From: an uncultured candidate division Zixibacteria bacterium
Lineage (GTDB): Bacteria; Zixibacteria; MSB-5A5; UBA10806; 4484-95
DNA: 64,000 nucleotides
NCBI GenBank assembly: GCA_963668625.2
Contig: CAXXKA010000008.1
Coordinates: forward strand, 672,001 to 736,000
Direction: 5' to 3'
Shown here: positions 3,674 to 28,464 of the stretch, one piece after another
How the letters are laid out: every line of letters starts with the position of its first letter
Position numbering within the stretch: the first letter of the stretch is position 1
Program-made: the position numbers and the translations under genes
Notes under the pieces: generated by a model
What the model saw: the letters and a program-made list of their open reading frames with translations, nothing else
Databases searched by the model: none
What the model was told of the DNA's origin: nothing

Positions 3674-5197
3674 ATGAAAACAATTATAACAGCCATCTTC
3701 ATACTAAGTTTGGCATGTTTTTGTTATGCCGATGAGGAACTTGCATTAGTTGATATTATAAGTTTTACAGATTTGGATACCGATGCAGAAATCACCTCGA
3801 TTAATAATGTAGGTGATTTCAATGCTGATGGCTACGATGATTTATTGATCGGTATTTACCAGGGGCCTACAGCTACCGATTTTCGTGAAGCAGCCTTTCT
3901 GTATTATGGCGGGCCTATTTTTGACACTGAACCTGACTTGATTTTCAAAGGCGAACCAAATGCTGAATTTTGCTACCCCGATGTTACTGCAGGCTTTGGC
4001 CGAAGAGCCTGTGGTTTAGGCGATTTCAATGCTGATGGTTATGATGATATAGTAATATCAGCTTCCGGGTTGTGTATTGACGATTTATATCAAGGGCGAT
4101 TATACTTTTACTTCGGATCACCTGAACCAGATACTACTATTGATTTAATAATCGATGGTGAAAGGTATAGAGATTTTCTTGGACGTTATTTAATCGCGGG
4201 TGATTTCAACGGAGATAACATTGGTGACTTATATACCTGCACTGATAACAGTTACTATGGCCCACAGGTGTTCATCTATTTGGGCAGCGATTCTCCTAAT
4301 AATACTCGTGATTTTATCTATGATTATTCCTATCAAGAAGTATACCTTGAAGGAATTGGGGGTGGATTTGATATAAACGGTGATAGTTGTGATGAATTTA
4401 ATTGGAATATTTATTTAAATGATTTGTATTCAGTATATTTAAATTTAGGATCAGATGAACTCAACTTAGAACCTGATTATCGATTCGATAATGTTTTATT
4501 TATAGGGGACATATCTTGCGATGGTATTGATGATTTCATAATGCACAATTCAGAAAATGAATATTTTCTTTATTTAGGGGGAGATCCGGTCGATATATTG
4601 CCCGATTTTTATATGTGGACAGAGAATTATTTTCAATGTAATCCCTTTGTTTGTGAATTGGCAACTGGGGATTATAGATTAATTACCGAGGATTTTATGA
4701 ACACCCAAATATCATGCTATAATATAGGTGTACCATTTAATACAGAGCCATGTGCTAATTATAATTACCACCAATCCCGGTGTATAAGCTACCCTTTAAG
4801 TATTGGGGATATTAACGCAGATGGATTAAATGAATTCTCCATAAATTATGTAACAGATTCTCTTCAAGATATGATTTATTTATATTCAATGTCAACAGTA
4901 AGTATTGGCGATTATTATAGCCATATTCCTATGGATAAAGAATTGATTTCCTGCTATCCCAATCCATTTAATTCATCAACAATTATAAGTTACTCATCAT
5001 CGGAGGGAGGTGATATAGGAATATATGATATTACAGGTAGATTGGTCAAAAGCTACCTGATGGGGGATTTGAAGGAGGGGAATATAATCTGGGATGGTAC
5101 CAATTATCAAGGTGATAAGGTGTCATCCGGTATATACTTTGTTAAATTACAAAGCCTTCAAAGTTCAGTTTCCACTAAACTAATATTTATGAAATAG
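3674..5197 (+). CDS. Secreted FG-GAP (integrin-alpha-like) repeat protein with C-terminal YPNPFN/FlgD-Ig sorting domain
   Basis: Signal peptide; repeated GDFNADGYDD motifs; C-terminal CYPNPFNSST...IYDITGRLVK...SGIYFVKL...KLIFMK. Confidence 0.88.
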   Translation: MKTIITAIFILSLACFCYADEELALVDIISFTDLDTDAEITSINNVGDFNADGYDDLLIGIYQGPTATDFREAAFLYYGGPIFDTEPDLIFKGEPNAEFCYPDVTAGFGRRACGLGDFNADGYDDIVISASGLCIDDLYQGRLYFYFGSPEPDTTIDLIIDGERYRDFLGRYLIAGDFNGDNIGDLYTCTDNSYYGPQVFIYLGSDSPNNTRDFIYDYSYQEVYLEGIGGGFDINGDSCDEFNWNIYLNDLYSVYLNLGSDELNLEPDYRFDNVLFIGDISCDGIDDFIMHNSENEYFLYLGGDPVDILPDFYMWTENYFQCNPFVCELATGDYRLITEDFMNTQISCYNIGVPFNTEPCANYNYHQSRCISYPLSIGDINADGLNEFSINYVTDSLQDMIYLYSMSTVSIGDYYSHIPMDKELISCYPNPFNSSTIISYSSSEGGDIGIYDITGRLVKSYLMGDLKEGNIIWDGTNYQGDKVSSGIYFVKLQSLQSSVSTKLIFMK

Positions 5198-5236
5198 TTG
5201 ATTAGGTTCAGCTATTATTTTTCAGGGGGGAAGTTA

Positions 5237-5359
5237 GTGTTACACAAGTTTACATTTGTGTCCTTCATGGTTGTGCTTATTACAAATATGGTATTTGGTA
5301 TAAGCCATACTGTTAATTTTAACGAAACAGGTAACCCACCAGTATGGTGGGCAAGCTAA
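5237..5359 (+). pseudogene. Short signal-peptide stub (MLHKFTFVSFMVVLITNMVFGISHTVNFNETGNPPVWWAS*) running into repeat R1
   Basis: GGGGGG RBS-like run, GTG start, hydrophobic N-terminus; last 10 codons lie within repeat R. Confidence 0.4.
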
Positions 5360-5449
5360 AGCCTCACAGCCATATATAATTGAGCACTAAACTAAATACA
5401 GGCTAATCTTTAATTATTGAAAGACAACTAGCTGAGCAGGGATTCGAAC
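5325..5449. repeat. Direct repeat R, copy 1 (~125 bp), ending in a reverse-strand tRNA-3'-end-like sequence
   Basis: Matches 9238-9362 with about 7 mismatches; reverse complement of its end reads GTTCGAATCCCTGCTCAGCTA. Confidence 0.9.
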
Positions 5450-6162
5450 AGGTGGTGAGGACATGTTTCATCAAAGCGGCATATAGAAATACTGAATATA
5501 GCCGTAATTGTCACCTGGCTCAGAATTGGAATCTAAAGATAATTATAGGGTTAGGATAATTGGCAAGCTAAAGCGTGTTTGTTAATAAAACTGTTTCAAA
5601 TTAGTGAATAATAAGAAATTCAGCCTATTATTTCATGCTTCTAATGAAAAAGCTGGCAAAAGTCGGGGGTTTATAGCGGGGGTTGGTATTATTGATAGTG
5701 CGAAGATGTTATTCAAGTCAATGGCAATTTACTATCGTGATTCAGTTAGTTACTAGTAACTAATCAAGAATTAGGCTGTTATGCTGGTTGTAGGATTAAA
5801 ATGATTGTTGAGCAGCTTAGTCGCATACTCTTAAATTGTTATCTATTGGCAGGAAACTTATAATCGGTCCTTACTCAAAAAGGACTGATATAAATTATAT
5901 CAGCAAGATCGGGATTTAAAGCCAGTAATATTGAATCAACTACTTATCCCAAGTTGAATTCAAGTAATGAATATTATTTATCTTTTCTGAGTTATTTTAG
6001 TAAATTTATTCTTTAAAGTATATTCTGTTGATCAATAAAGACTTAAATTTGATTAAACTCATGCTTCCACTACTAGAATACACTGACCAGGTACCTCGGC
6101 AGTTCCCCTTTTATTGATAAAAGCGGTTACTAATGTATTACCGTTGCGATTTAATTTAACAA

Positions 6163-6343
6163 TAATTCTATAATAAATAACTTGGCCTGAAAGTCAATAC
6201 TGATTATATAAAACAAGGATTTTTAGCTTAAGTATTAGATGTTCGTTTTGGCTTAAAATCTTGGATTAGTTTAAAGTTTAGAAATTTGTCATATAATTTT
6301 AAGATTATCTAGTGGAATTTAATCTTGGAGGTGTAAGTGAGTA
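6163..6343 (+). repeat. Duplicated upstream region U, copy 1 (~180 bp, includes RBS and GTG start)
   Basis: Identical to 7845-8025 except 2 adjacent nt. Confidence 0.93.
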
Positions 6344-7560
6344 CGGGAATAATAAAATTTAACCGGCTACTTATTAGCATAATAGTGATATTGCTAGTGC
6401 CTACCTGTTATGCTCAGGTTATTTCGATCGAGGAATACCTGAATTCGGCAATGGCTGATAAGCAGTCTGGGTTAAAATACTCAAAGGACTTTGATGGTAA
6501 TTATTATTCAACATTTGTTACAAGAGAATATGTTGCTATTCGAGAGCAAAGTCTTTACCCCAAAAATGTGGATAAAGGCCAAATGGAAAACATTTACAAA
6601 CCACATAAAATAAGCTTCCTATCAGGGGAGAATAAACTCGCCGAATTAGATTTAAATGGTGAAAACTACATGGTTAAAGGAGTTATTAAATCAGAAGATG
6701 AGGATTTATTCATATATACTTCCAGGGTAGATGGAAAATACTGTTCTAGTATTCGTAAACTTGACGGCAGTTTGATTAGCATCCTAAATTGCCCGCCCTT
6801 TGTTACATGTTCTCCGGGGGGTGTATATTATTATAACTCTCGTGCCAATGACGGATTGAGTATTTACGACGAGTATGGTAATTTTATTTTTGCTATCCCA
6901 TGTATTGGGAGTTATTCTGCTAAAGCAGTATCAGATTCTCTAATTTTAGTTTTGGATGCAAACAGTTTATCGATGTGGGATATTTCCTATAAGAGTGTCA
7001 TTTGGAAAACTGAAATTCCATCACCATCATTTAAGCTTTCAGGCAATTCCATTATCAAATTCTCATTACTTCACAATATTATTGCAGTAAATGGATTGTA
7101 TGGATGTTACTGTTTTGATTTTAACGGTAATTTCTTGTGGCAAAAAGAATATGATTCCAATCAGGAACGACTGCAAATGTTAGGTATTTCTTCATTTAGC
7201 GGTGAATTAGTCACCATCAGGCAAGATTACAATCTAAAAAACTCAATTATTGAGTTTTTTACTGTGGATGGGAAATTAAGAACAAATAAAAAAATGAATT
7301 GGATTAATTCGCAAAATGCGTTTCGGGAATGGGATAAAGACCTTTTAATATTTGAGGATATCATTATGGTTCCTTGCATTTCAGGGAATTATAATACTCG
7401 AGACTATTACACAAGTATAATAACCTTTGAAAATGATGAACCCCAAATTACCAATATTGCGGGCTTCTGGTATTTTCTTGAATCTAAAACAGGAGAAACT
7501 CATATAGTTGGCTTTTCCCCAGATGATAATAAGATAAAATCATTTAAAATCGTACTATAG
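6337..7560 (+). CDS. Secreted hypothetical protein, probable beta-propeller; paralog of 8019-9239
   Basis: GGAGG RBS, signal peptide ending CYA-Q; shares AQVISIEE, LNGENY, CSPGG, GCYCF, GFWY motifs with its paralog. Confidence 0.8.
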   Translation: MSTGIIKFNRLLISIIVILLVPTCYAQVISIEEYLNSAMADKQSGLKYSKDFDGNYYSTFVTREYVAIREQSLYPKNVDKGQMENIYKPHKISFLSGENKLAELDLNGENYMVKGVIKSEDEDLFIYTSRVDGKYCSSIRKLDGSLISILNCPPFVTCSPGGVYYYNSRANDGLSIYDEYGNFIFAIPCIGSYSAKAVSDSLILVLDANSLSMWDISYKSVIWKTEIPSPSFKLSGNSIIKFSLLHNIIAVNGLYGCYCFDFNGNFLWQKEYDSNQERLQMLGISSFSGELVTIRQDYNLKNSIIEFFTVDGKLRTNKKMNWINSQNAFREWDKDLLIFEDIIMVPCISGNYNTRDYYTSIITFENDEPQITNIAGFWYFLESKTGETHIVGFSPDDNKIKSFKIVL

Positions 7561-7603
7561 AAAGAGTAATAAGTTATGAAACATAATAATGCATTGACAC
7601 TGA

Positions 7604-7844
7604 TCTTTCATCTCGTTGCGAAGCGCTGCTTCGCAACGTGGCTTGTTTGCCGGCAGAATGCGCATTCTACATGATTCAAGAAGGTTTCCAAGCAGCGCTT
7701 GGAAACCAGAAAACCAAGCCTAACATCGGCAGGATATGTCAGGATGAATGATACGCTGAATAAAATAATTATATCGGAAAATATTTCTCATTAACAATTC
7801 CAAGGAGAAATTTAAAATTTAACGAAAAACACCGGACACTAGTG
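7604..7844 (+). mobile_element. IS4-end MITE copy, left end missing
   Basis: Near-identical to 45776-46030; ends CCGGACACTAGTG like the IS4 at 19578-20843. Confidence 0.88.
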
Positions 7845-8025
7845 TAATTCTATAATAAATAACTTGGCCTGAAAGTCAATACTGATTATATAAAACAAGG
7901 ATTTTTAGCTTAAGTATTAGATGTTCGTTTTGGCTTAAAATCTTGGATTAGTTTAAAGTTTAGAAATTTGTCATATAATTTTAAGATTATCTAGTGGAAT
8001 TTAATACTGGAGGTGTAAGTGAGTA
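7845..8025 (+). repeat. Duplicated upstream region U, copy 2
   Basis: Matches 6163-6343; begins immediately after the MITE right end. Confidence 0.93.
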
Positions 8026-9239
8026 TGAAAAGAAGAATTCGATGTTGGGTACTGATTTGTTTTACATTGATATTGCTAGTACCAGCATGCTATGCCCAAG
8101 TTATATCAATTGAGGAATTTATTCAGTCAGCTATGGCTGATAAGCAGTTAGAGTTAAATTATGCGATCAATACAGAAGGGGTTTTTTACGCTGCTATTTC
8201 AACTGATAACTACATTATCTTTGAAGAAGCCAAATTATACTCTCGAACATCTCAGGCTCATGGTGATGTAAGGATCAGCAAACCCCATAAGATTCATATT
8301 TTATCAACAGAAAACAGTATGACTGAATTTAATCTAAATGGAGAAAACTATATCGTTCAAGGATTATTTACAGCAGATGACGAAGACTACTTTATTTACT
8401 CTGCTAAAATGAATGATAATTTTGGGGCGCAATTATATTCAATTGATGGTATTTTTATTCGTACATTAAATTGCCCTGCAAATGTAAAGTGTTCTCCAGG
8501 TGGTAAGTATTATTATGAAGAACGCGGACAGATGGGATTTGGTATATATGATGAGCTTGGTAACTTTAAATTCAATATAAACTGTTTGGGGGAGTTTTTC
8601 TCTAAGGCAGTATCTGACTCATATCTCCTTGTTTTAGATGCTAAATCCCTAGCATTGTGGGATATTAATTCAAAGCGTATAGTATGGAAATCTGATATCC
8701 CAAACACTTCATATAAAATCTCAGGATTATCGATTATTTCTTTCTCTGAACAACATGATTTAATATTATTCAATGCTTATGACGGTTGTTATTGCTTTAA
8801 TTTCCATGGTGATTTTTTGTGGTTTAAGGATATTGATAGAAACTATAGCCGGTTTCAAACGTTTGGAATATCTGAGTCAAATGGTGAGATTATGGTTCTT
8901 ATAGCAAACAGCGCTATAATGGACTTGGAACTTAACATCTTTGACAAGAATGGCAATCTGAACAAACAAATCCCCTTACAAGTTCAAAATTCTCAAGAAC
9001 TACTAGGAGCTTGGGATTCTGAATTAATGGTTTATGATGATTATATTGTTATACCCTATATTACCGGTCACCAAAATGATCGGAAGTGTTATTCAAGTAT
9101 TCTGGCATTGAGTGATAATCAACTATCAATATATAATATTTATGGTTTTTGGTATTTACTAAAGATCAATCAAAATCAATTGTGTTTTATCGGCTATGAA
9201 TCTAATCAAGAATCCATAAAATCTTATGGCATTCGATAA
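8019..9239 (+). CDS. Secreted hypothetical protein, probable beta-propeller; paralog of 6337-7560
   Basis: Signal peptide; colinear motifs with the 407-aa paralog. Confidence 0.8.
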   Translation: MSMKRRIRCWVLICFTLILLVPACYAQVISIEEFIQSAMADKQLELNYAINTEGVFYAAISTDNYIIFEEAKLYSRTSQAHGDVRISKPHKIHILSTENSMTEFNLNGENYIVQGLFTADDEDYFIYSAKMNDNFGAQLYSIDGIFIRTLNCPANVKCSPGGKYYYEERGQMGFGIYDELGNFKFNINCLGEFFSKAVSDSYLLVLDAKSLALWDINSKRIVWKSDIPNTSYKISGLSIISFSEQHDLILFNAYDGCYCFNFHGDFLWFKDIDRNYSRFQTFGISESNGEIMVLIANSAIMDLELNIFDKNGNLNKQIPLQVQNSQELLGAWDSELMVYDDYIVIPYITGHQNDRKCYSSILALSDNQLSIYNIYGFWYLLKINQNQLCFIGYESNQESIKSYGIR

Positions 9240-15925: not shown

Positions 15926-16921
15926 CTAAAACTTCTTCTCATGCACATGACAGTACGGTGTCTTGCCGTTGCCCTCGTAGTAATCCTGATGGTAATCCTC
16001 GGCGGCATAGAATTCGCCCGCTTTCTCAACCTCGGTGACTACCTTATAGCCTTTTTCTTTGAGTACATCTATCAGCCTATCGGCGGTAAATTTCTGCTCG
16101 GCGCTGGTATAGAATACCGCCGAACGATACTGCGGGCCGATGTCGGGCCCCTGGCGGTTCTCCTGGCCGGGATCATGTATCTCGAAAAAGTACTTGGCCA
16201 ACTCCTCGAACGATATTTTCGCCGGATCGAATTTTACCTCAACCGCCTCTGCATGGCCGGTGTTTTCGTGGCATACTTGATAGTATGTCGGGTTCTCCAC
16301 ATGTCCGCCCATGAATCCGGAACGGGCATCGATGACACCATCTAGTTGCTCCAATAGATACTCGACTCCCCAGAAACATCCACCGGCAAAATAAGCGGTT
16401 TCCACTTTACTCTCGGTGATCACTGGCGGAAGCTCCTCGTCTTTTGGCACGAAACTCAGAGATATCGAATTCACGCAGTGACGGACGTTTTTATCGGTGA
16501 AATGCTCACCCTCGAATACGTGGCCGAGATGGCCGCCGCAATTAGTACAGGTAATTTCCGTGCGATGACCATCGGCATCCAGGGTATGCCTGACCGCGCC
16601 GGGAATCTCATCATCGAAACTGGGCCAGCCGCAGCCGGAATCGAACTTATCGGTGGAGTGATAAAGTGGAGCGTTGCACTGTTTACAGATAAACGTACCG
16701 TTATCCTTGAAATGCTCGTATTTACCGCTGCCGGGACGCTCGGTACCTTTATGTACGATAACTCGCGCCTCCTCCGGGGTTAACTCGTTATATTTCATTT
16801 CGCTACTCTCCCCCATATCGTTGTCGGCGTATGATGATTTCTGTGATATCGTCAATCCGATGAATACCGCCAGTATTATCATCGCTATGCCTAATCCTGC
16901 CGAATATGTTTTCATGTTCAT
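15926..16921 (-). CDS. msrAB: Exported bifunctional methionine sulfoxide reductase MsrB-MsrA
   Basis: N-terminal signal/anchor; MsrB motifs KGTERP, DSGCGWPSF, GHLGHVF, RHCVNS; MsrA motifs FAGGCFWG, GHAEAV, QYRS, AEDYHQDY. Confidence 0.95.
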   Translation of the reverse strand: MNMKTYSAGLGIAMIILAVFIGLTISQKSSYADNDMGESSEMKYNELTPEEARVIVHKGTERPGSGKYEHFKDNGTFICKQCNAPLYHSTDKFDSGCGWPSFDDEIPGAVRHTLDADGHRTEITCTNCGGHLGHVFEGEHFTDKNVRHCVNSISLSFVPKDEELPPVITESKVETAYFAGGCFWGVEYLLEQLDGVIDARSGFMGGHVENPTYYQVCHENTGHAEAVEVKFDPAKISFEELAKYFFEIHDPGQENRQGPDIGPQYRSAVFYTSAEQKFTADRLIDVLKEKGYKVVTEVEKAGEFYAAEDYHQDYYEGNGKTPYCHVHEKKF

Positions 16922-17884: not shown

Positions 17885-19210
17885 CTAATTACCAACTCGT
17901 TTCTGGGCCGGGTAGGTATCGCCATCGCTGTCCAACTCGTAAAGCTCGACTATTTCCCCGTATATATCCCTGACGAATTGAACCCTGTATTTGGCGTAAT
18001 TCTCCTCAGCATATTTAAAAAGATCATTCCCCATAGGAACAAGCTCGTGATAGCCACCTCTGCCCCATGTATAAAATATTCTGTTGCATTTAACGGTGAT
18101 CGTGTCACTTTCGCCATAAACGCCTGCATATTCTAACAAGATTTCGCTATCTATAGTCACCTGGTTCATATCGCTCTCATAGTAAGTCATCGTCCATTCC
18201 AACAGATATCTCGTATCCTCGGCTTCCTCGGATTCGAGCAGATATTTGCATGCCTCAAAGTTGGCAACGATAAAGGCCTTATCGGTTGGAGTCTCAATAT
18301 CCGGTATTATCCCATTAATATAATTTGTTTTGGAGTACGGATTGATATCACTGGTGTACGGTACTTTCATATTGATTCCGAGTTCGGGGAAACTCATATA
18401 TTTAACCGAATGCGCCCCGCCTTTGGTTTTCTGGCCAATAATAGTCGCTTTGCCCAGTTGCTGAAGTTGATATGAGAACGCCTCGGTGGCCGAATATGAA
18501 AAGCCGCTCAGAAGAATATACACCGGAATATCAGTAAGCTTTGGCCCGGCTACGCTCTCCATTGTCCAGACTTCCTCGGTAGTATTGGTCGAACGGGTGT
18601 AAATATCGGTCAGATGCGTCCGCTTGTCGAAAAGGTAACTGCATAACAATATTCCCATATCCGTATCACCGCCTCCGTTCAAGCGAAGGTCAAAAATCAA
18701 GGCATCACAGTTAGCCACGAAATTCATTGCCGCAATCGCCGTTGCTCCGGCGCTCTTCGGATTATTAAAAGTAACGAGTTCGATATAACCGATATTTCCC
18801 GGCAGTATCTCTACTTTATGAAAGCCAAAATTATCCTCGGGGGAACCAAGTTTTGTTTCATGCGCCAGGTCATCGGGTATTTTCTCGTATGGATAAATCT
18901 TAATATGATGATCGTTGGATATCTCGCGCAGGTCCGAGGTCAATTTTGCCGTGAGCTCGGGAATTTCCGTAAGACTATCGTATTCGTACCTTCTATATTT
19001 ACCATTAATGTAATCGGTCATCGAAACAGCTACATCCTCCAAAGGATATAACTCATTAAATACCTTATCTATTTTACTAATAATCGCAGAACGTTTTTGG
19101 TTGCTCAGAATGGTATCGTCGGAGCTATAGTCATTTTGCGATAAAGCCGGAGTGACCAGAACCGAAAATACCAGGATTAGATAGGCTGCTAATTTTAATA
19201 ATCGATACAT
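17885..19210 (-). CDS. Secreted S41-family peptidase (IRBP/tricorn-like)
   Basis: Signal peptide; GNIGYI, DLRLNGGG, SYSATEAF, IIGQKTKGGAH, GIIPD. Confidence 0.9.
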   Translation of the reverse strand: MYRLLKLAAYLILVFSVLVTPALSQNDYSSDDTILSNQKRSAIISKIDKVFNELYPLEDVAVSMTDYINGKYRRYEYDSLTEIPELTAKLTSDLREISNDHHIKIYPYEKIPDDLAHETKLGSPEDNFGFHKVEILPGNIGYIELVTFNNPKSAGATAIAAMNFVANCDALIFDLRLNGGGDTDMGILLCSYLFDKRTHLTDIYTRSTNTTEEVWTMESVAGPKLTDIPVYILLSGFSYSATEAFSYQLQQLGKATIIGQKTKGGAHSVKYMSFPELGINMKVPYTSDINPYSKTNYINGIIPDIETPTDKAFIVANFEACKYLLESEEAEDTRYLLEWTMTYYESDMNQVTIDSEILLEYAGVYGESDTITVKCNRIFYTWGRGGYHELVPMGNDLFKYAEENYAKYRVQFVRDIYGEIVELYELDSDGDTYPAQKRVGN

Positions 19211-19577: not shown

Positions 19578-20843
19578 CACTAGTGTCCGGGCTTTGAGGC
19601 TGGCTTGACAGACCTCCTATAATAAGGGTGTAAACGCTAATTATAACACCTTTGTTTACAGGAGGTTAAAAATGCAAGGGAAGGTTACAATACTTCGCCA
19701 GATAACGCAAATGATTTCTCGATACGATTTCCAAAAAGCAGTTTCGACTGGCAAAGGGCGGCATTTCACGGTTTCTTTCGGCTACTGGTCGCACCTGGTG
19801 GCGATGATATTCGGGCAATTATCGGAGCAGCAATCGCTGCGTGATCTGGTCTTGAATCTTTCCCGTCAGGCGCATAGGTTTTACCATCTGGGTATGTCAA
19901 AGATACGCCGTTCGACTTTTTCGGATGCCAACAATCATCGGCCCTCGGCAATATACGAGAACTTGTTTTACATATTATTGAATCGTTACGGTTGTCATTT
20001 TCAAGGCAAAAACCGGAAGCTGGGGAATAAATTATACTCAGTTGATTCGACGGTCATAGATTTGTGTCTGGGGTTATTTTATTGGGCTAAATTCAGAACG
20101 ACCAAGGCCGGTGTCAAGCTTCATGTCAGGTTAAACCATGATGGTTACATCCCTGATTTTGCGGTTGTCACCAATGCCAATATTCATGATTCCAGAGTCA
20201 GGAAGATGTTCAATTTACCGGCTGGCAGTATCGTGACTTTCGACAAAGGCTACAATGACTACAGTCTTTTCAAGTTATTAAATGATAAGGGGATAATCTT
20301 TGTCACGCGGCAGAAGAATAACGCTAAATACAAAGTAATCAAACGGTGTAGAACTAATCGTAAGCAAGGAGTCACCTCCGATCATTGGATTGAATTTACC
20401 GGTTTTTACTCCAAGCAAAAATGTTCGATTAGGCTGAGACGAATCCGTTATATCGATAAAGAAACCGGTAAAGTTTATGTATTCCTGACCAATGATTTCA
20501 AACATGCCGCCTCGACTATTGCCGACATTTATAAGCAGCGCTGGCAGATAGAATTGTTTTTTAAAGCGTTAAAACAGAACCTTGTGATCAAGACTTTCTG
20601 GGGTACCTCCAAGAACGCAGTATATTCCCAGATCTGGGTGGCTTTGATAATCTATTTGTTAATGAGCGCGCTGAAATACAAATACAAAATATCGGCCTCA
20701 GTTGGAAAGTTAATTCAGAGAATCCGGTCATTCGTGTTTGAAAAAGATGATGTCCTGAGATTCCTTAAAGACCAAATACCAATCCCAATACAAATCGCTC
20801 AAACATCTCAAATTAACCTGTCCCTAAAGGCCGGACACTAGTG
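19578..20843 (+). mobile_element. Complete IS4-family insertion sequence (1266 bp)
   Basis: 18-bp TIRs CACTAGTGTCCGG(G/C)CTTT; perfect 9-bp TSD ATATATTAA at 19569-19577 and 20844-20852. Confidence 0.95.
19672..20841 (+). CDS. IS4-family DDE transposase (DUF4372-type N-terminus)
   Basis: SLRDL, RRSTFSDAN, VDST, KAGVKLH, FDKGY, YKQRWQIELFFKALKQ (YREK signature); stop codon inside right TIR. Confidence 0.95.
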   Translation: MQGKVTILRQITQMISRYDFQKAVSTGKGRHFTVSFGYWSHLVAMIFGQLSEQQSLRDLVLNLSRQAHRFYHLGMSKIRRSTFSDANNHRPSAIYENLFYILLNRYGCHFQGKNRKLGNKLYSVDSTVIDLCLGLFYWAKFRTTKAGVKLHVRLNHDGYIPDFAVVTNANIHDSRVRKMFNLPAGSIVTFDKGYNDYSLFKLLNDKGIIFVTRQKNNAKYKVIKRCRTNRKQGVTSDHWIEFTGFYSKQKCSIRLRRIRYIDKETGKVYVFLTNDFKHAASTIADIYKQRWQIELFFKALKQNLVIKTFWGTSKNAVYSQIWVALIIYLLMSALKYKYKISASVGKLIQRIRSFVFEKDDVLRFLKDQIPIPIQIAQTSQINLSLKAGH

Positions 20844-20982: not shown

Positions 20983-21345
20983 TTAATAATTATGCGTGCC
21001 GATCACCACTTCCTTATCGAAATTCTCTTTGATCAGGTTGGTGATCTTGTCGAAATCAAGCGGGCAATCGCCTGTTTTCTTGGCTTTCACCACGCATGTT
21101 CCCAGATGGATGATATCGTAATTTCGATCGATACCGGCCGCGATTTCATTCATCAGTGTAACTTTGGGCATTATAAGCCCAGGGCAGTCGCCGCAGTTTC
21201 CCAGCGCGATAAGCTCGAGTTCGTCATCATCCTTGTACCGGGCGAACTCGCCCTCGCGAAGGCTGATTGCTTTGAGACATTTCTCGCAGGCTATACAGAG
21301 CTGATCCTGGATCCGCTTGCAGCCGACGATAGCTATCTTTGCCAT
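20983..21345 (-). CDS. CGGC-domain protein (Cys-rich, putative metal/Fe-S binding)
   Basis: IAIVGC, CIACEKC, CGDCPG, IHLGTC, CP, VIGTH pattern. Confidence 0.85.
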   Translation of the reverse strand: MAKIAIVGCKRIQDQLCIACEKCLKAISLREGEFARYKDDDELELIALGNCGDCPGLIMPKVTLMNEIAAGIDRNYDIIHLGTCVVKAKKTGDCPLDFDKITNLIKENFDKEVVIGTHNY

Positions 21346-21876: not shown

Positions 21877-22066
21877 CGCCACTGTCCGGCCTTTCCATCT
21901 CGTTGCGAAGCGCTGCTTCGCAACGTGGCTTGTTTGCCTGCAGAATGCGCATTCTACATGACTCAAGAAGGTTTCCAGGCAGCGCTTGGAAACCAGCGAA
22001 CTAAACCTAACATCGGCAGGACATATCAGGATGTATGATACACTGAATATACAATTATATCGAAAA
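21877..22066 (+). mobile_element. IS4-end MITE copy, right end missing
   Basis: Starts CGCCACTGTCCGGCCTTT; colinear with 45776-46030; abuts the stop codon of the DUF1579 gene. Confidence 0.85.
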
Positions 22067-22633
22067 TTATCGCTTGGTATAAACAGCCTTGCCCATAACT
22101 TGCCAGGTTTTACCGCCATCGAATGAATGCTCGAATAACCAATCGAACTTGTTTTCGGTCTGGTTAAAAATGGTCACCCGTGAATGAAGTTTCTGTCCGG
22201 CCCAGACCTCTTTGCCGGAGGTTACCATCTTACCCTCCTGGTATTTGCCGGTATAAAATGACATCTTACCGCCCATCGAATCGATCCAGAGATTTTGCCA
22301 CTCGTTTGTATCACGGTCATAACTTATCATCATGAAACCATCGAAAGGCATCCCCAGCATTTCGCCCTTAAACCGGCTCTCGATCGCACAACCATCCAGG
22401 GTGTATTTATACATAGCGCTACCCCGGGTTTTATTCCATTTCTCGGGATTTTCCATATCGGCCCATTCCATATCGCAATCCCATTGCCCCTCCATGTAAG
22501 CCAGTTCTTTCATCTGAGCGGGCGCTCCCATCTCCATTGCCGCCATCTCATTTTGCTCGTGGTTATCACCGATTGCCGCTGAGAAGCTGATTCCTGCGAT
22601 TAAAACCAGTGTTAAGATACTTCTGATGACCAT
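22067..22633 (-). CDS. Secreted DUF1579-family protein
   Basis: Signal peptide; EGQWD, GMPFDG, YDRDTNEWQNLWIDSMG, SFDGGKTW. Confidence 0.8.
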   Translation of the reverse strand: MVIRSILTLVLIAGISFSAAIGDNHEQNEMAAMEMGAPAQMKELAYMEGQWDCDMEWADMENPEKWNKTRGSAMYKYTLDGCAIESRFKGEMLGMPFDGFMMISYDRDTNEWQNLWIDSMGGKMSFYTGKYQEGKMVTSGKEVWAGQKLHSRVTIFNQTENKFDWLFEHSFDGGKTWQVMGKAVYTKR

Positions 22634-22739
22634 CTCTTGCTCCTTCCGTAAGTGAATAATTAGTTTATGTTAATCGAGTTAAGATTGATGTTAAAACATC
22701 TTTAACATCCACCGGGGTTTCCTAAAAAATTCTATTTTC

Positions 22740-22769
22740 TTGACTAAATACCCATAAAATGGTTAGATA
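22740..22769 (+). promoter_or_regulatory. Putative sigma70 promoter of the four-gene membrane operon
   Basis: TTGACT-N17/18-TAGATA upstream of 22915. Confidence 0.4.
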
Positions 22770-22914
22770 AAAAACCTATGAATACCATATACGAATATTT
22801 CAATTACCCCGTAGACTCGATCAGCAGGATCGCCAATATAGCATGCCCCAAGACGGCTGTAAATAGAATAAACTATGATACATTTAAAATAATAACAAAA
22901 AGAAAGAGGTACTC

Positions 22915-24141
22915 ATGAAACAAAAGATCCTTTATGTGATACTTTTGGTGATTCTACTCTCGTTGGGCTCTTTCGGTCAGGAGACCACCCCGGTTGCGGA
23001 TGAAAGCTCTCCGGCCGAGATGATCCAGGTTCCGACCGTAGCCCCGCCGGGTGAGGTGATCGCCAAAGACACACCTAATGATGCAGGCTCATCGATAACT
23101 ATCAGGTGGGAACGCTCGCCCGATGATATCGCTGAGACCCCCGGGTTTGCAGGTTACGCGATCCTTCGCGGGGAATCTCCCGAGGGGCCGTTCGAGCAGC
23201 TCGGCGAGACCACCGCCGGTGGGGATGAGGATAACCATGACTACAAAACCTATCTCGACAACAACGCTTTGGATGGCGTGAAATACTGGTACGCTATAGA
23301 TGCCAGAGCCGGGGATCAGATTGCCCGGGCAATCACGAGCACGCCGGTGACATCCTCACAACAGTGGTTCAATTTCGGCCTGACAAACATGTTTATCGCC
23401 ACCGCGTTTCTTATCTCGGCGATACTGTTCTATATCACCAGCGCCAAATCGGGCAAGAAACTGTACATCCGTAAAATAGCCGGTTTGGAGGCCGTCGATG
23501 AGGCGGTTGGCCGTGCCACCGAGATGGGCAAGAAAATATTTTTCATACCGGGCACTCAGGATATGGACAACGTCCAAACTATCGCAGGAGTGACTATTCT
23601 CGGCCGTGTTGCGCAGAAAACAGCCGAGTACGAAGCTCGTATCGATGTGCCCGTGTCGCGTTCGCTGGTGATGGTAACCGCGCGAGAGGTGGTTAAAGAG
23701 GCGTATCTCAACGCCGGCCGCCCCGATGCTTACTCCGATGACATGGTGTACTATCTCACCGATGACCAGTTCGGTTACGCCGCCGGTATCGATGGCTTGA
23801 TCGTTCGCCAGAAACCGGCCACCATCTTCTATCAGGGGGCGTTCTACGCCGAATCGTTGATTCTGGCCGAGACCGGCAACTCTATCGGCGCTATCCAAAT
23901 CGCCGGAACGGCTATGCCTTCGCAATTGCCGTTTTTCGTGGCCGCCTGCGATTACACCCTGATCGGTGAGGAGCTGTTCGCCGCCAGCGCATATCTCTCG
24001 CGCGAACCCAAGCTCCTCGGCTCCCTGAAGGGTCAGGATCTGGGTAAGCTCGCAATCATTACCGCGTTATTGTTGGGATTCGTAATCCAGGTGTTGGGAA
24101 TATTCAATTTCGCAACCCTATTCGATGTGTCGGGAGGTTAG
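22915..24141 (+). CDS. DUF6754-type membrane protein with N-terminal exported FN3-like domain (subunit A)
   Basis: Signal peptide; DTPNDAG...ITIRW...YWY FN3-like region; TM; IRKIAGLEAVDEAVGRATEMG, ESLILAETG, QLPFFVAACDYTLIGEELFAASAYLS; C-terminal TM. Confidence 0.85.
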   Translation: MKQKILYVILLVILLSLGSFGQETTPVADESSPAEMIQVPTVAPPGEVIAKDTPNDAGSSITIRWERSPDDIAETPGFAGYAILRGESPEGPFEQLGETTAGGDEDNHDYKTYLDNNALDGVKYWYAIDARAGDQIARAITSTPVTSSQQWFNFGLTNMFIATAFLISAILFYITSAKSGKKLYIRKIAGLEAVDEAVGRATEMGKKIFFIPGTQDMDNVQTIAGVTILGRVAQKTAEYEARIDVPVSRSLVMVTAREVVKEAYLNAGRPDAYSDDMVYYLTDDQFGYAAGIDGLIVRQKPATIFYQGAFYAESLILAETGNSIGAIQIAGTAMPSQLPFFVAACDYTLIGEELFAASAYLSREPKLLGSLKGQDLGKLAIITALLLGFVIQVLGIFNFATLFDVSGG

Positions 24142-24144
24142 GCT

Positions 24145-24798
24145 ATGAAACGTGAAGTTCCATTACTGATTGCCGGTATAGTCGGATCGGTGCTGGTTAT
24201 ACAGTACTTCATCCCGCATACCCCGTTCGGCACATTAAACGATGTTTTCTCGGACTGGTTCTCTATCATCCAGGCAACCGCTATCTGGCTGGGCGCGCTC
24301 AACCTCATAAAGGTTGCCGGTGATAAAGTGTATAAACGTCAGAAAGACTGGCCATACTCGTTAATAGTAATTGTCTGTTTCTTGATAATGGTCATCGTCG
24401 GCTTGTTCTTCTCCGGCGGCACTCGTTTCCTTGATCCGGGTACGCCGTTTTCGACATTATACGATTATGTCTACTCACCACTCGTGTCAATGATGTTCGC
24501 TTTGCTGGCGTTCTTCGTCGGTTCGGCCTCGTACCGGGCATTCAGGGCGCGCAATAAGGAGGCTACCGTACTGCTGGTGGCGGCATTCCTCGTGATGCTC
24601 GGCCGTGTGCCGCTTGGCGATATGCTGACAGGCTGGCTGCCTCATTCTCTGCAAATGTCCAACGTGGCGAGCTGGATTATGAACGTACCCAACCTTGCCG
24701 GTCAGAGAGCTATCATGATCGGTATCTCGCTGGGTATCGTCTCCACTGCGCTGCGCATGATACTTGGCATCGAACGCTCATACCTGGGAGGTGAATAA
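24145..24798 (+). CDS. Polytopic membrane protein (subunit B of DUF6754 operon)
   Basis: About 6 hydrophobic segments; LLAFFVGSASYRAFRAR, AGQRAIMIG, LRMILGIERSYLG. Confidence 0.85.
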   Translation: MKREVPLLIAGIVGSVLVIQYFIPHTPFGTLNDVFSDWFSIIQATAIWLGALNLIKVAGDKVYKRQKDWPYSLIVIVCFLIMVIVGLFFSGGTRFLDPGTPFSTLYDYVYSPLVSMMFALLAFFVGSASYRAFRARNKEATVLLVAAFLVMLGRVPLGDMLTGWLPHSLQMSNVASWIMNVPNLAGQRAIMIGISLGIVSTALRMILGIERSYLGGE

Positions 24799-25652
24799 TG
24801 GCTAACGGTGTGAAAAACTTCCTGGAAAGAATGATGGGAATAGACCGTCGGGTGATCTTCCTGCTTATTTTCATTGCGCTGTCTATCCCGATGTTTATCA
24901 AGTTCGATATGGAAATCCCGACCTCGCCCGAGGTAGAACTGTTGGTTGATACCATGGAGAAACTGCCAGACGGCGCCAAGGTGATGGTCTCGCTTGACTA
25001 CGACCCCAGCTCCGAACCGGAGCTTCAACCGATGGCAGAGACATTCCTTCAATATGCTTTAAAGCGCAATTTCAAGGTTATCTGTATCGGTTTATGGCCA
25101 CAGGGTTCCATACAAGCCGAACGTGCCCGTCGAGTAGCCGAGGAAGTATCGGGTCGGCCGTTCGAGTACGGCGTTGATTATATCAACCTCGGTTACCAGG
25201 CAGGTAACGAGCTGGTTATTCAGCGCATGGGCTCCTCCATACCGGCGATGTTTCCCAACGATAATTTCGGCACGCCCGTCGATCAATTCCCGATAATGCA
25301 GGGCGTGAAGAATTTCTCGAACATCGATTACGTGTTCAATCTCTCAGCCGGTTATCCCGGCACGATTGAGTGGGTACTGTTCGCGGCCGATAAATTCGGC
25401 GCGATAGTCGGCGCGGGTAATACCGCCGTGCAGGCCCCCTCGGTATATCCTTACCTCGGCAAGCAACTTCGTGGGCTGGCCGGTGGCATGAAAGGCGGCG
25501 CCGAATTCGAGATACTTACCGAGTTCCCCGGCCGGGCCGTAAAATACATGGTCGGCCAGACATTCGCCCATACCGTGATCGTACTGTTTATCATCGTCGC
25601 GAATATTGCCTTCTTTGCCACACGCGGTAATAAGAAGGGAGGCGTACTATGA
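24798..25652 (+). CDS. Membrane-anchored protein with central alpha/beta domain (subunit C of DUF6754 operon)
   Basis: DRRVIF N-terminal TM, DYDPSSEPELQPM, YGVDYINLGY, GGMKGGAEFE, C-terminal TM; TAATG overlap with B. Confidence 0.85.
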   Translation: MANGVKNFLERMMGIDRRVIFLLIFIALSIPMFIKFDMEIPTSPEVELLVDTMEKLPDGAKVMVSLDYDPSSEPELQPMAETFLQYALKRNFKVICIGLWPQGSIQAERARRVAEEVSGRPFEYGVDYINLGYQAGNELVIQRMGSSIPAMFPNDNFGTPVDQFPIMQGVKNFSNIDYVFNLSAGYPGTIEWVLFAADKFGAIVGAGNTAVQAPSVYPYLGKQLRGLAGGMKGGAEFEILTEFPGRAVKYMVGQTFAHTVIVLFIIVANIAFFATRGNKKGGVL

Positions 25653-26344
25653 TTACTTTCTGGACATGGATCGGCGCTATCCTGACACTGGGTATACTTT
25701 CGTTCTTGTACAAGGATAACCCGTTTTACAAAGTCTCCGAGGCTATTTTCATGGGGATATCCGCCGGCTACTGGTTCGTTTCGCTGTGGTTCCAGTCGTT
25801 CACCCCGAAACTTCTCGATAACCTCGGCATACGCAAAATGCTGGGCGCGGATGTTGATAACGGCGCATTGCAGAACGTTTTTAGCGGCCACTACGATGAA
25901 CGTATCTGGTATGTCGTAGCGGGTATACTGGCAATCATGATGTTGTGTCGCTTGATCCCCAAAGTCGGCTGGATATCGCGCTGGCCGCTGGCGTTTATCG
26001 TGGGTACGACCTCCGGCGTGTATCTCACCCGTTACCTGGCATCCAACGCGCTGGCACAGATCAACAACACGCTGAAAGTGTTCATCCCGCTTGGCGCGGA
26101 GGGCTTTTTAAGCTGGGCCAACCTGAACTACTTCCTGATTCTGATAGGTGTGCTCACGGGCCTGATATATTTCTATTTCTCCAAGGAGCACAAGGGAATA
26201 ACAGGTGGAGCGGCCCGTATCGGCATTTATTTCCTGATGGTGACATTCGGCGCGTCATTTGGCTACACGGTGATGTCGCGTATGTCGCTACTGATAGGCC
26301 GGCTCGATTTCCTATACAGCGACTGGCTGCATCTGATAAAGTAA
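25649..26344 (+). CDS. Polytopic membrane protein (subunit D of DUF6754 operon)
   Basis: SFLYKDNPFYKVSEAIFMG, ISRWPLA, YFYFSKEH, MVTFGASFGYTVMSRMSLLIGR; ATGA overlap with C. Confidence 0.85.
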   Translation: MITFWTWIGAILTLGILSFLYKDNPFYKVSEAIFMGISAGYWFVSLWFQSFTPKLLDNLGIRKMLGADVDNGALQNVFSGHYDERIWYVVAGILAIMMLCRLIPKVGWISRWPLAFIVGTTSGVYLTRYLASNALAQINNTLKVFIPLGAEGFLSWANLNYFLILIGVLTGLIYFYFSKEHKGITGGAARIGIYFLMVTFGASFGYTVMSRMSLLIGRLDFLYSDWLHLIK

Positions 26345-26358
26345 AACGATTCAACACG

Positions 26359-26389
26359 AAGGTGCCGGGCAAAAAGCTCGGCGCCTTTT
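26359..26389 (+). terminator. Intrinsic terminator of the DUF6754 operon
   Basis: AAGGTGCCGGGC-AAAAA-GCTCGGCGCCTT hairpin followed by T run. Confidence 0.7.
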
Positions 26390-26428
26390 CCAATCGCTAG
26401 CTTTGCGTAAATAAATTAATGACCACCC

Positions 26429-26576
26429 GTAGGGGCGTATCGAATACGCCCTGAGGCAGGGGTGGGGCATTTTAATAATATCATAAATAGTAAGATGCCA
26501 AGCGTAGGGGGCGATCTAAAACCGCTCCGTATCAGCATGGCAACCAACCCGGGCTGGTCTTAGACACAGCCCCTAC
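26429..26576. repeat. Cluster of GTAG-type REP palindromes
   Basis: GTAGGGGCGTATCGAATACGCCC, GTAGGGGGCG..., and inverted GGGCTG...CAGCCCCTAC. Confidence 0.75.
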
Positions 26577-26601
26577 GTAATCTGCTAATAAGGGCGAAAC
26601 C

Positions 26602-28464
26602 ATGACCGAACCAAAAACCTGCAAATACGATGGCTGCAACGAGCCGGTAAACTCCCCTCACGATGAGGAATTCTGCGTTTTCCATGCATCCGTGGAGAAC
26701 AAGGGGATTAGTGTTGAGGAGTTTAATAATAAGATATTTGAGAGAATTGATGATATTTTTAAACATAATAAACATGAGCAAAATGATAAGGATAAGAAGT
26801 ATTTTGATTTTGAAGGTTTTATATTCCCCGGCAATATAGATTTTGGTGATTATGAAAGGATATATAATAGTAAATTGAATTTTAATCACCATGCTTATTT
26901 CACGAATGCCCAATTTTCAGGAGATGCTTCTTTCATAAATGTTCAATTTTCAGAAGATGCTGATTTCTTGGGTGCCATTTTTTTAAAACGTGTTTATTTC
27001 ATAGGTGACATATTTTCAGGAAATTCTTATTTCATAAATGCCCAATTTTCACGAGATGCTATTTTTAGGAATGCCCAATTTTCAAGAGATGCTGATTTCA
27101 CGAATGCCCAATTTTCAGGAGATGCTTATTTCAAGAATGCCCAATTTTCAGGAGATGCTTCTTTCAGTGATGCCCAATTTTCAGGAGATGCTGATTTCAT
27201 GAATGCCCAATTTCCAGGAGATGCTGATTTCAGTAAAGCCCAATTTTCAAAATATGCTTATTTCATAAATGCCCAATTTCCAGGAGATGCTTCTTTCTGG
27301 AATGCCCAGTTTTCAGGAAATGCTTATTTCAGTAATGCCCAATTTTCAGGAGATGCTTATTTTCATCAAACTCATTTTGATGGCACAATCCTGTCTAATG
27401 ACTTAACAATTGAAAAAAAAATTAGTTTTGCTAACATTACCATGTCTGATAAGGCTCGTTTTTATTTAAGAAATCCAATATTTAAACCTGCGGGATATGT
27501 CAGTCCTAAGATAATATTCGATTCTATACAATTTAATCCCTTCGCAGTTTATTTTGGAGATATAAATTCTAATGATAATATCAATGCTTGTTTGCTATTC
27601 CGCTACTGCCAACTAAAAGATGTCTATTTCACAAATAACGATATGTCTCTATTCTCATTTTACAAGAGCTCTTTCGATGAAGCCCGATTTATATCAAGCA
27701 AATGGGGATTAGTTAACGATAGAATCCTATGTTTCCCATTCAAGAGACAGAATATTATCCCCGAAGAGCATTTCTTAAAGCAAGTAAATGAATTAAATGA
27801 TAACGAAGAACAAACTAAGCAACTCAGAAAAGCCTACAAAATAGAGGACTTAAACTCCCCCCTCGATATCGCCTCCCTGTACCGCCGTATGAAAACCGCT
27901 CTGGATAACACCAAAGACTACGAGCAATCCGGCTGGTTCTATTTCAATGAACTCGAGATGAAACGTCAGGCTTTAGAGGATGAGATTGAAACTAGCGAAC
28001 CTAAATGGAAGATCTTCAGGTGGCAACCATTTATATGGTTAAATCAACAACGCAAAAAACTTTTCAGCCGATATATACTCTATTTCTCCTACAAGGTGTT
28101 CACCGGTTTCGGGCAAAAACCAATGTGGTCTTTCTGCTGGTTCATGTTTTTCACGGTGTTTTTTTCATTCATTCATCTACTTACAGGCTTAAGGAATGAG
28201 GCCTCCGGTATTGAGGATATCAAATACTCGTTGTCATCACTATATGGCTCTTTGGCCAACGGTTATTTCTGGAGTGATTTTCTCGACTCATTCATCTACA
28301 CGATATCACGCGTATTACCTGTCAGCTATGTCTCAACATCGCCCTCGGACTGTTACCCTCTAACATCACTGGGGAAAATAGCCTCGGTATTCAACTCGGT
28401 AATACTTATCATTCTGATAATCTTCATCGGCATAGGTCTCAAACGCCATTTCCGGAGATTTTGA
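26602..28464 (+). CDS. Pentapeptide-repeat protein with N-terminal Cys/His motif and C-terminal membrane domain
   Basis: About 15 repeats of NAQFSGDAxF (30-bp DNA unit); C-x4-C...FCVFH; YRRMK...GWFYFNELEM; terminal TM helices. Confidence 0.88.
   Translation: MTEPKTCKYDGCNEPVNSPHDEEFCVFHASVENKGISVEEFNNKIFERIDDIFKHNKHEQNDKDKKYFDFEGFIFPGNIDFGDYERIYNSKLNFNHHAYFTNAQFSGDASFINVQFSEDADFLGAIFLKRVYFIGDIFSGNSYFINAQFSRDAIFRNAQFSRDADFTNAQFSGDAYFKNAQFSGDASFSDAQFSGDADFMNAQFPGDADFSKAQFSKYAYFINAQFPGDASFWNAQFSGNAYFSNAQFSGDAYFHQTHFDGTILSNDLTIEKKISFANITMSDKARFYLRNPIFKPAGYVSPKIIFDSIQFNPFAVYFGDINSNDNINACLLFRYCQLKDVYFTNNDMSLFSFYKSSFDEARFISSKWGLVNDRILCFPFKRQNIIPEEHFLKQVNELNDNEEQTKQLRKAYKIEDLNSPLDIASLYRRMKTALDNTKDYEQSGWFYFNELEMKRQALEDEIETSEPKWKIFRWQPFIWLNQQRKKLFSRYILYFSYKVFTGFGQKPMWSFCWFMFFTVFFSFIHLLTGLRNEASGIEDIKYSLSSLYGSLANGYFWSDFLDSFIYTISRVLPVSYVSTSPSDCYPLTSLGKIASVFNSVILIILIIFIGIGLKRHFRRF

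Follow-up and report, generated by a model that had tools for sequence, protein, structure and literature searches.

What membrane system is encoded by four tightly packed genes, of which only the first specifies a protein of a catalogued family? The genes, designated here A, B, C and D, occupy positions 22915-26344 of a stretch of 64,000 nucleotides (hereafter the window) from an uncultured candidate division Zixibacteria bacterium (contig CAXXKA010000008.1, positions 672,001 to 736,000). An earlier, sequence-only reading had proposed an operon for a multi-subunit membrane complex, built as two pseudo-symmetric pairs of a soluble and a membrane component and possibly serving the transport of peptides or amino acids. 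In the present analysis, A-D are found to be a translationally coupled operon, whose products, on good though not conclusive grounds, form one membrane complex. The B, C and D families and the ABCD module as a system appear in none of the libraries searched, which do not include closed collections of viral and metagenome contigs, only the A domain being catalogued, as a domain of unknown function (DUF); ABCD is thus apparently a new kind of inner-membrane system.

The operon and its conservation as a unit

Four co-oriented open reading frames (ORFs) on the plus strand, with an intergenic leader and a terminator, make up the locus as follows.

22634-22914, plus strand: intergenic leader 5' of gene A, with ribosome-binding site AAGAGG at 22904-22909
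22915-24141, plus strand: gene A, 408 aa, DUF6754 protein
24145-24798, plus strand: gene B, 217 aa, polytopic membrane protein without known family
24798-25652, plus strand: gene C, 284 aa, alpha/beta domain between two transmembrane helices, without known family
25649-26344, plus strand: gene D, 231 aa, polytopic membrane protein without known family
26358-26389, plus strand: intrinsic-terminator-like hairpin and U tract, 14 nt past the D stop codon

The stop codon TAG of gene A is followed by GCT and then by the ATG of gene B, leaving a gap of 3 nt, while B and C overlap in TAATG and C and D in ATGA; the ORF coordinates and a direct reading of the sequence agree on these junctions, as reported earlier. 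AAGAGG or GGGAGG, ribosome-binding sites of the GGAGG type, are located 5-9 nt 5' of all four starts. The terminator claimed previously is substantiated by a hairpin with a 13-bp stem at 26358-26388 (free energy -25.7 kcal/mol, z = -5.3, matched by 0 of 200 shuffles) and a U tract; it had been overlooked by a simple scanner because the tail has only four U. The putative promoter did not fare as well, since a sigma-70-type scan, which does not cover the phylum's own promoter type, returned 6 sites against 6.2 expected from shuffled sequences. An Rfam scan of positions 22000-27000 matched no family. The operon is GC-rich, as had been stated (0.531 against 0.435 for the whole window), and the GC content at third codon positions (GC3) of A-D, 0.63-0.69, is the highest among the 19 ORFs tabulated between positions 1 and 30290. 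Native-looking neighbour genes lie below A-D (GC3 0.48-0.62) and the low-GC genes at 3674-9239 and 26602-28464 far lower.

A scan of species-representative genomes gave at least 619 matching stretches, from which 73 loci were kept, all of them in metagenome-assembled genomes (MAGs) from uncultured lineages and together representing at least 14 named lineages. These are Zixibacteria (21 loci), Ignavibacteria (7), Fermenti-/Aegiribacteria (5), WOR-3, Cloacimonadota and Planctomycetota (3 each), Stahlbacteria, Eisenbacteria, Gemmatimonadota, Acidobacteriota and 'Deltaproteobacteria' (2 each), and Coatesbacteria, Armatimonadota and Marinimicrobia (1 each); a further 18 loci are unclassified. Individual loci are denoted below by L-numbers. 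The B, C and D genes were located in them by tblastn with the proteins of the window.

The downstream sequence reaches 2700 nt or more for 80 A genes, and 72 of these are followed by B, C and D in this order; the co-occurrence of the four genes in other genomes is thereby established across phyla. Among the other eight A genes, matches to B, C and D are all present in seven, with B or D interrupted or partial: B is split by a large insertion in five of the exceptions (L018, L023, L049, L059 and L069), L011 carries B, C and a partial D, and L009 has D in two pieces. A 795-aa fusion of DUF6754 with Peptidase_S49 (SppA/NfeD-like), encoded at L010:7956-10343, has no B, C or D downstream. The chromosome with this fusion also carries two full loci, L011 and L060.

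Many loci of Zixibacteria and Ignavibacteria contain two or three ABCD modules in tandem; the module type of the window comes first in L005, L009, L013, L016, L017, L019, L023, L024, L027, L032, L034, L036, L042, L048 and L063. No second module was found in the 64-kb window. Between the two modules of L022, genes for an NfeD and an SPFH/Band-7 (stomatin-like) protein are observed (L022:11395-12749).

The evolution of the modules was compared over 78 of them, namely 77 complete modules from 56 loci and that of the window. Pairwise distances correlate between the A, B, C and D families with r = 0.83-0.86, values that are partly due to shared phylogeny, and the stronger point is provided by the comparison within genomes. 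In all 42 modules of the multi-module loci (42/42), the nearest relative of each of A-D sits in another locus, so that the duplications are older than the separation of these loci, and each module has evolved as a unit. The module types also go back beyond the divergence of the species. Average-linkage clustering distinguished three main module types, that of the window belonging to the largest (38 of 78). The partitions of C and D into four groups are nearly identical (adjusted Rand index 0.94), agreement with A and B being lower (0.17-0.51 at k = 4). A natural fusion of C and D was also found (L060:13673-15388), in which an uninterrupted frame of 571 aa joins the two by an R/K-rich linker; a record of it also exists at NCBI.

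The proposal of a multi-subunit unit is upheld by these observations, and it is likely that the products of A-D form one hetero-oligomeric complex of the cytoplasmic membrane, ancient and widely distributed, given the conserved order, the translational coupling, the co-divergence and the C-D fusion. A complex prediction for residues 148-408 of A with B, C and D gave 0.75, 0.72 and 0.71; replacement of A by unrelated proteins gave 0.00 and 0.00, but 0.70 was still obtained when C was swapped, and by the rule of the predictor such scores speak neither for binding nor against it. That four unrelated membrane genes have merely become neighbours by chance is extremely improbable, as order and coupling are kept in 72 of 80 cases across phyla and as the families co-diverge and C and D occur fused.

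Architecture of the subunits

Protein A is a full-length member of DUF6754 (PF20539), matched at E = 1.5e-122 with 408.2 bits (cutoff 27) over residues 148-402 against positions 2-256 of the 257 in the profile, and the family identity given earlier is thereby secured. The Pfam entry covers the A domain only, its partners B-D having no profile in Pfam or NCBIfam. Confident AlphaFold2 models were obtained, from alignments made in this analysis, for A (predicted local distance difference test, pLDDT, 89.6) and for C (pLDDT 94.1), and both display the proposed build of an alpha/beta domain between two transmembrane helices.

A, residues 1 to about 21: signal-peptide helix, then a disordered linker (AlphaFold2)
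A, residues 48-138 (23056-23328, plus strand): FN3-like beta-sandwich ectodomain (AlphaFold2, Foldseek)
A, residues 154-178 (23374-23448, plus strand): first transmembrane helix (AlphaFold2)
A, residues 189-362 (23479-24000, plus strand): highly conserved Rossmann-like alpha/beta domain of six helix-strand units (AlphaFold2)
A, residues 365-394 (24007-24096, plus strand): second transmembrane helix (AlphaFold2)
C, N-terminus: amphipathic helix, then a transmembrane helix at residues 17-33 (AlphaFold2)
C, residues 44-240 (24927-25517, plus strand): Rossmann-like alpha/beta domain of six helix-strand units (AlphaFold2)
C, residues 246-279: second transmembrane helix (AlphaFold2)

Residues 48-138 of the A model superpose on titin, Robo3 and bacterial Fn3 domains with target-normalised template-modelling scores (TM-scores) of 0.70-0.76, root mean square deviations (rmsd) of 2.5-3.5 A and identities of 14-20%. 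The ectodomain, as modelled, has the Fn3 beta-sandwich fold, and together with the signal-peptide helix this agrees with the exported FN3-like domain that had been proposed; the Pfam fn3 profile (PF00041) is unmatched by the A protein of the window at E <= 1. Beyond the Fn3 part, Foldseek returned for the A model only a poor LNS2/HAD-like match (TM-score 0.2-0.33, rmsd about 27 A), and a reading of A as an HAD phosphatase was dropped, the DxDxT-type motif not being conserved across the family alignment. Owing to the signal peptide and to a K/R-rich stretch following the first transmembrane helix, the alpha/beta domain of A is predicted to lie in the cytoplasm.

Conservation of A is concentrated in this DUF6754 part, in which representatives of clusters formed at 50% identity still share 55-62% of their residues and an alignment of 40 diverse sequences has 39 columns without variation, many of which hold charged or polar residues. 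More than 8000 close homologues are present among sequences clustered at 90%, and those with a name are from Zixibacteria MAGs; at 50% identity, 2432 clusters match with E <= 1e-3 and 806 of these reach 1e-30. The N-terminal part varies between relatives from absent to more than 700 aa. Among 82 long relatives (those of 150 listed that have at least 455 aa or a C-terminal extension, two being dropped for size), the ectodomain grafted N-terminal to DUF6754 is fn3 in 6 and a PQQ_2/BamB-like propeller in 16, and is unrecognised in the remainder.

Protein C is predicted to expose its alpha/beta domain on the extracytoplasmic side, because its termini are K/R-rich. Foldseek matches of the C model are generic (Rossmann, SDR, GT-B and flavodoxin; TM-score at most 0.34 on the query). 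C has 783 homologues, and the 120 listed are all named 'hypothetical protein', none with a Pfam label; an Atlas search with C gave only unnamed clusters as neighbours.

The suggestion of a pseudo-symmetric complex finds no support in the sequences. Residues 189-362 of A and 44-240 of C both consist of six helix-strand repeats between two transmembrane helices and their top Foldseek matches differ; BLASTP found nothing between A and C or between B and D, and hhalign gave these pairs probabilities of only 1.9% and 0.3%, respectively. An origin of the pairs by duplication thus does not appear to be supported at the level of sequence.

B and D each contain 4-6 hydrophobic windows. The earlier count of about six transmembrane helices in each holds for B, which reads as a protein of about six such helices with its N-terminus probably inside, and is left less definite for D, with 4-6 hydrophobic segments. 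The glycine- and serine-rich motifs quoted earlier, GSASYRAFR in B and GASFGYTVMSR in D, proved to be conserved across the families: all of 93 B sequences share S127, A128, R131 and F133 (SA..R.F motif, residues 127-133), and all of 83 D sequences share F200, G201, F204, G205, M209 and R211 (motif FGASFGYTVM.R); D23, N24, Y27, E31, R111 and H181 of D are invariant as well.

Large insertions occur in both proteins. B variants of about 600 aa carry an insertion of about 380 aa in the loop past the third hydrophobic segment (L023:12947-14725, L059:9165-10952 and L049:4182-6020). That of L023, between residues ~92 and ~96, is an FG-GAP beta-propeller, and the loop is for this reason probably extracytoplasmic; the insertions of L059 and L049 matched no Pfam family. 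Nineteen longer forms of D were identified, most with insertions of 160-400 aa past residue ~145, some of which are labelled HHH_3/PsbU-like or CheB_methylest. One variant has its insertion past residue ~60, and another bears an N-terminal extension of 200-240 aa behind a hydrophobic anchor.

Neither B, C nor D reaches any Pfam or NCBIfam cutoff. Scans of the family alignments gave only sub-threshold matches for B (93 sequences; most commonly TMD0_ABC, in 21) and nothing consistent for D (83 sequences, no cutoff reached), and profiles of ABC-2, Rnf-Nqr, PTS, ExbB/MotA, MFS and other families were not matched above cutoff by B or D. Sequence and profile searches of the PDB with A, B, C, D and P375 (a protein of about 375 aa encoded near A in related loci, see below) yielded nothing meaningful, the profiles of B and D having no matches at all, and an Atlas search with D gave no usable named match. 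The PADLOC anti-phage defence models identified no family among A-D and four neighbour proteins. In line with what had been supposed, the Pfam, NCBIfam, PDB and Atlas searches thus contain no above-cutoff match to a characterised transporter, nor to another characterised family. For DUF6754, PF20539 and PF13941 (the Pfam MutL family, considered below), no publication was found in the searchable literature, which excludes subscription journals, and broader queries listed no relevant title.

Two functional readings bear directly on these features. According to the first, ABCD is an ion-coupled secondary transporter or channel for small solutes such as peptides or amino acids, in which B and D would form the pore, C would supply a tethered binding domain and A would be regulatory. 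Invariant charged residues in two polytopic subunits, an operon devoid of an ATPase, tandem paralogous modules that resemble those of transporter families, and a predicted extracytoplasmic alpha/beta domain in C that could bind a substrate speak for it. However, no member of the B or D alignments reaches a transporter family, the best being the sub-threshold TMD0_ABC matches; C has a single Rossmann-like lobe, unlike a binding protein; the grafted domains belong to kinds that bind proteins, polymers or DNA; and the neighbourhood has no link to peptide or amino-acid metabolism. The reading is accordingly regarded as unlikely. No result points to the peptide or amino-acid substrate suggested earlier.

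According to the second, ABCD is a sensor or signalling complex spanning the membrane, in which the variable ectodomains would sense an outside cue and the cytoplasmic domain of A would relay it. A conserved cytoplasmic domain joined to ectodomains of differing type would suit such a role, and 7 of the 93 B sequences show a weak similarity to 7TMR-DISM_7TM (E = 0.002, below cutoff). Yet no subunit has a kinase, cyclase or helix-turn-helix output domain, forms of A without an ectodomain exist, and four co-diverging subunits with near-invariant membrane residues exceed the usual needs of a sensor; this alternative is therefore given very little credence.

Upstream genes and comparison with known systems

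In several phyla the module is accompanied by further genes. P375 often adjoins A, either co-oriented directly upstream or divergent within 5 kb, and is strongly conserved (mean column identity 66%). A MutL/GlmL-like ASKHA ATPase of about 617 aa, encoded 5' of P375, matches Pfam MutL (PF13941) at E = 1e-128 and remains below the NCBIfam GlmL cutoffs (232 bits against 475 for GlmL, 217 against 600 and 171 against 204); it represents a divergent, longer branch relative to the GlmL/MutL accessory proteins. Two small proteins without known family also precede P375. Of the 40 loci whose upstream sequence extends to 5 kb or more, 14 have P375, 11 have the ATPase, and 12 and 8 have the one and the other small protein. 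The 64-kb window contains no P375, MutL-like or small-protein gene.

The earlier statement that there is no ATPase holds for the window, but not for the 11 of 40 related loci with an adjoining ASKHA ATPase. Walker A, CxxC and CxxCH motifs are absent from all four proteins, each of which has a single Cys.

These genes raise the alternative that ABCD is the membrane part of an ATP-driven machine, with the MutL/GlmL-like ATPase and P375, a putative barrel-sandwich protein, as its motor, whose genes would have been separated from the operon here by rearrangement. The order small-small-MutL-P375-A-B-C-D, with all genes co-oriented, recurs in Zixibacteria, Ignavibacteria, Fermenti-/Aegiribacteria, Planctomycetota, Acidobacteriota and unclassified MAGs, and the conservation of P375 is very high. 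In the closest relative, L022, whose A is 77% identical, P375 lies directly upstream of A, where the window has a DUF1579 gene, a CGGC-domain gene and an IS4-type transposase; the segment 19672-22633 looks like a synteny break. Against this, P375 and the MutL-like gene occur at only 14 and 11 of the 40 loci, neither is in the window, and the ATPase is below the GlmL cutoffs and without a known membrane role. This alternative is likewise regarded as unlikely.

The surroundings of the operon in the window are otherwise as follows.

3674-9239: low-GC island (GC 0.33-0.35, GC3 0.28-0.31) with three ORFs of 406-507 aa, unlike its surroundings
15926-16921, minus strand: fused MsrB-MsrA methionine sulfoxide reductase (SelR + PMSR), an ordinary neighbour
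17885-19210, minus strand: S41 peptidase, an ordinary neighbour
19672-20841: IS4-type DDE transposase (DDE_Tnp_1 + DUF4372)
20983-21345, minus strand: CGGC-domain gene
22067-22633, minus strand: DUF1579 gene
26602-28464: pentapeptide-repeat protein of 620 aa (Pentapeptide_3, E = 1e-41), Cys-rich at the N-terminus and with hydrophobic segments at the C-terminal end, GC 0.37, far below the operon

The wider neighbours in related loci are varied, including glycine cleavage, TonB receptor, ExbBD, rhomboid, NfeD/SPFH, ABC-F and LepA genes, and a metabolic theme drawn from them was rejected as uninformative.

Three groups of known systems resemble ABCD in part. Na+-NQR and Rnf likewise have two polytopic subunits of about 200-230 aa and one with an extracytoplasmic domain, and the N-terminus of P375 shows RnfC_N (9 of 18) and NQRA_N (5 of 18) matches, which are below cutoffs and equally Biotin_lipoyl-like (12 of 18); KOW was matched in 2 of 18. 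B and D, however, have no Rnf-Nqr match, and the build of A, an alpha/beta domain between two transmembrane helices, has no Nqr or Rnf counterpart. A redox pump of the Nqr/Rnf type was rejected, ABCD having no Fe-S, flavin or heme motif, one Cys per protein and no family match. ABC-2 systems of the GldF/GldG type similarly combine a permease-sized protein of about six transmembrane helices with a partner in which a large soluble domain is set between two such helices; ABCD differs in lacking an ABC ATPase, in that ABC2_membrane_3 was matched by only 1 of 93 B sequences (E 0.012), and in the predicted cytoplasmic location of the soluble domain of A. With ExbB-ExbD, TolQ-TolR and MotA-MotB it has in common the idea of an inner-membrane core that couples ion flow to a periplasmic domain, and the start of C resembles that of ExbD/TolR, its cytoplasmic N-terminus being followed by one transmembrane helix and a periplasmic alpha/beta domain. 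The differences here are the lack of a family match, the second transmembrane helix of C, and the sizes and helix numbers of B and D. Genuine ExbB/ExbD genes are found apart from the module, in the vicinity of some related loci.

A possible envelope machine and its significance

The reading favoured here, tentatively and with slightly less than even confidence, is that ABCD is an envelope machine acting on a macromolecular or envelope partner, a small-solute carrier being less likely. It is preferred because the grafts are domains that typically bind proteins, polymers or DNA, and because in several phyla the module is accompanied by an ASKHA ATPase and a conserved soluble protein. FN3, BamB-like and FG-GAP propellers, helix-hairpin-helix and S49 peptidase domains suit macromolecular partners better than small solutes. 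In the working model, B and D would constitute a membrane core bearing the invariant charged or polar residues (R131 of B; D23, N24, E31, R111, H181 and R211 of D). The two transmembrane helices of A would clamp its conserved cytoplasmic alpha/beta domain to this core, leaving the variable ectodomain, here FN3-like, exposed, while C would set a second alpha/beta domain on the outer face. The module would thereby link events on the cytoplasmic face with a partner outside, a macromolecule or part of the envelope, in translocation, assembly or anchoring, powered by an ion gradient or, where present, by the adjoining MutL-like ASKHA ATPase with P375.

Several points weigh against the envelope-machine reading. 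The ATPase, P375 and both small proteins are all lacking in 23 of the 40 loci that have 5 kb or more upstream; since the window lacks them as well, the link to the ATPase must be facultative or in trans. The ectodomain is not essential to the core, as short A forms of 267-303 aa without it are found in third-position modules. No chemistry can be assigned, because neither alpha/beta domain, of A or of C, has a specific structural relative. Evidence on the topology of D conflicts: going by the R/K-rich linker in the C-D fusion, its N-terminus would lie inside, but going by the anchored N-terminal extension and K/R-rich loops 3 and 5 it would lie outside. B and D may yet have a known transporter fold, and solute transporters that differ in specificity also typically come as tandem paralogues.

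A bolder version of the envelope-machine reading, offered as a doubtful possibility, would make ABCD the membrane core of an ancient and so far unrecognised kind of machine. The carrier phyla would have parted only after it had diversified into three or more module types, whose tandem order is fixed in Zixibacteria and Ignavibacteria; over part of its range the MutL-like ATPase and P375 would be its partners. It would move or assemble a macromolecule across or on the cytoplasmic membrane, the tandem modules perhaps forming a hetero-oligomeric super-complex.

A module so conserved and so consistently organised, with the cytoplasmic domain of A 55-62% identical across phyla, probably serves a basic function of the membrane or envelope in the bacteria that carry it. 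The co-diverging paralogous modules and the natural fusions are ready-made material for structure prediction and for the design of experiments. Defining the ABCD module would close a gap in the annotation of genomes from the Fibrobacteres-Chlorobi-Bacteroidetes (FCB) group and from further candidate phyla, and membrane machines of a new class might come to light.

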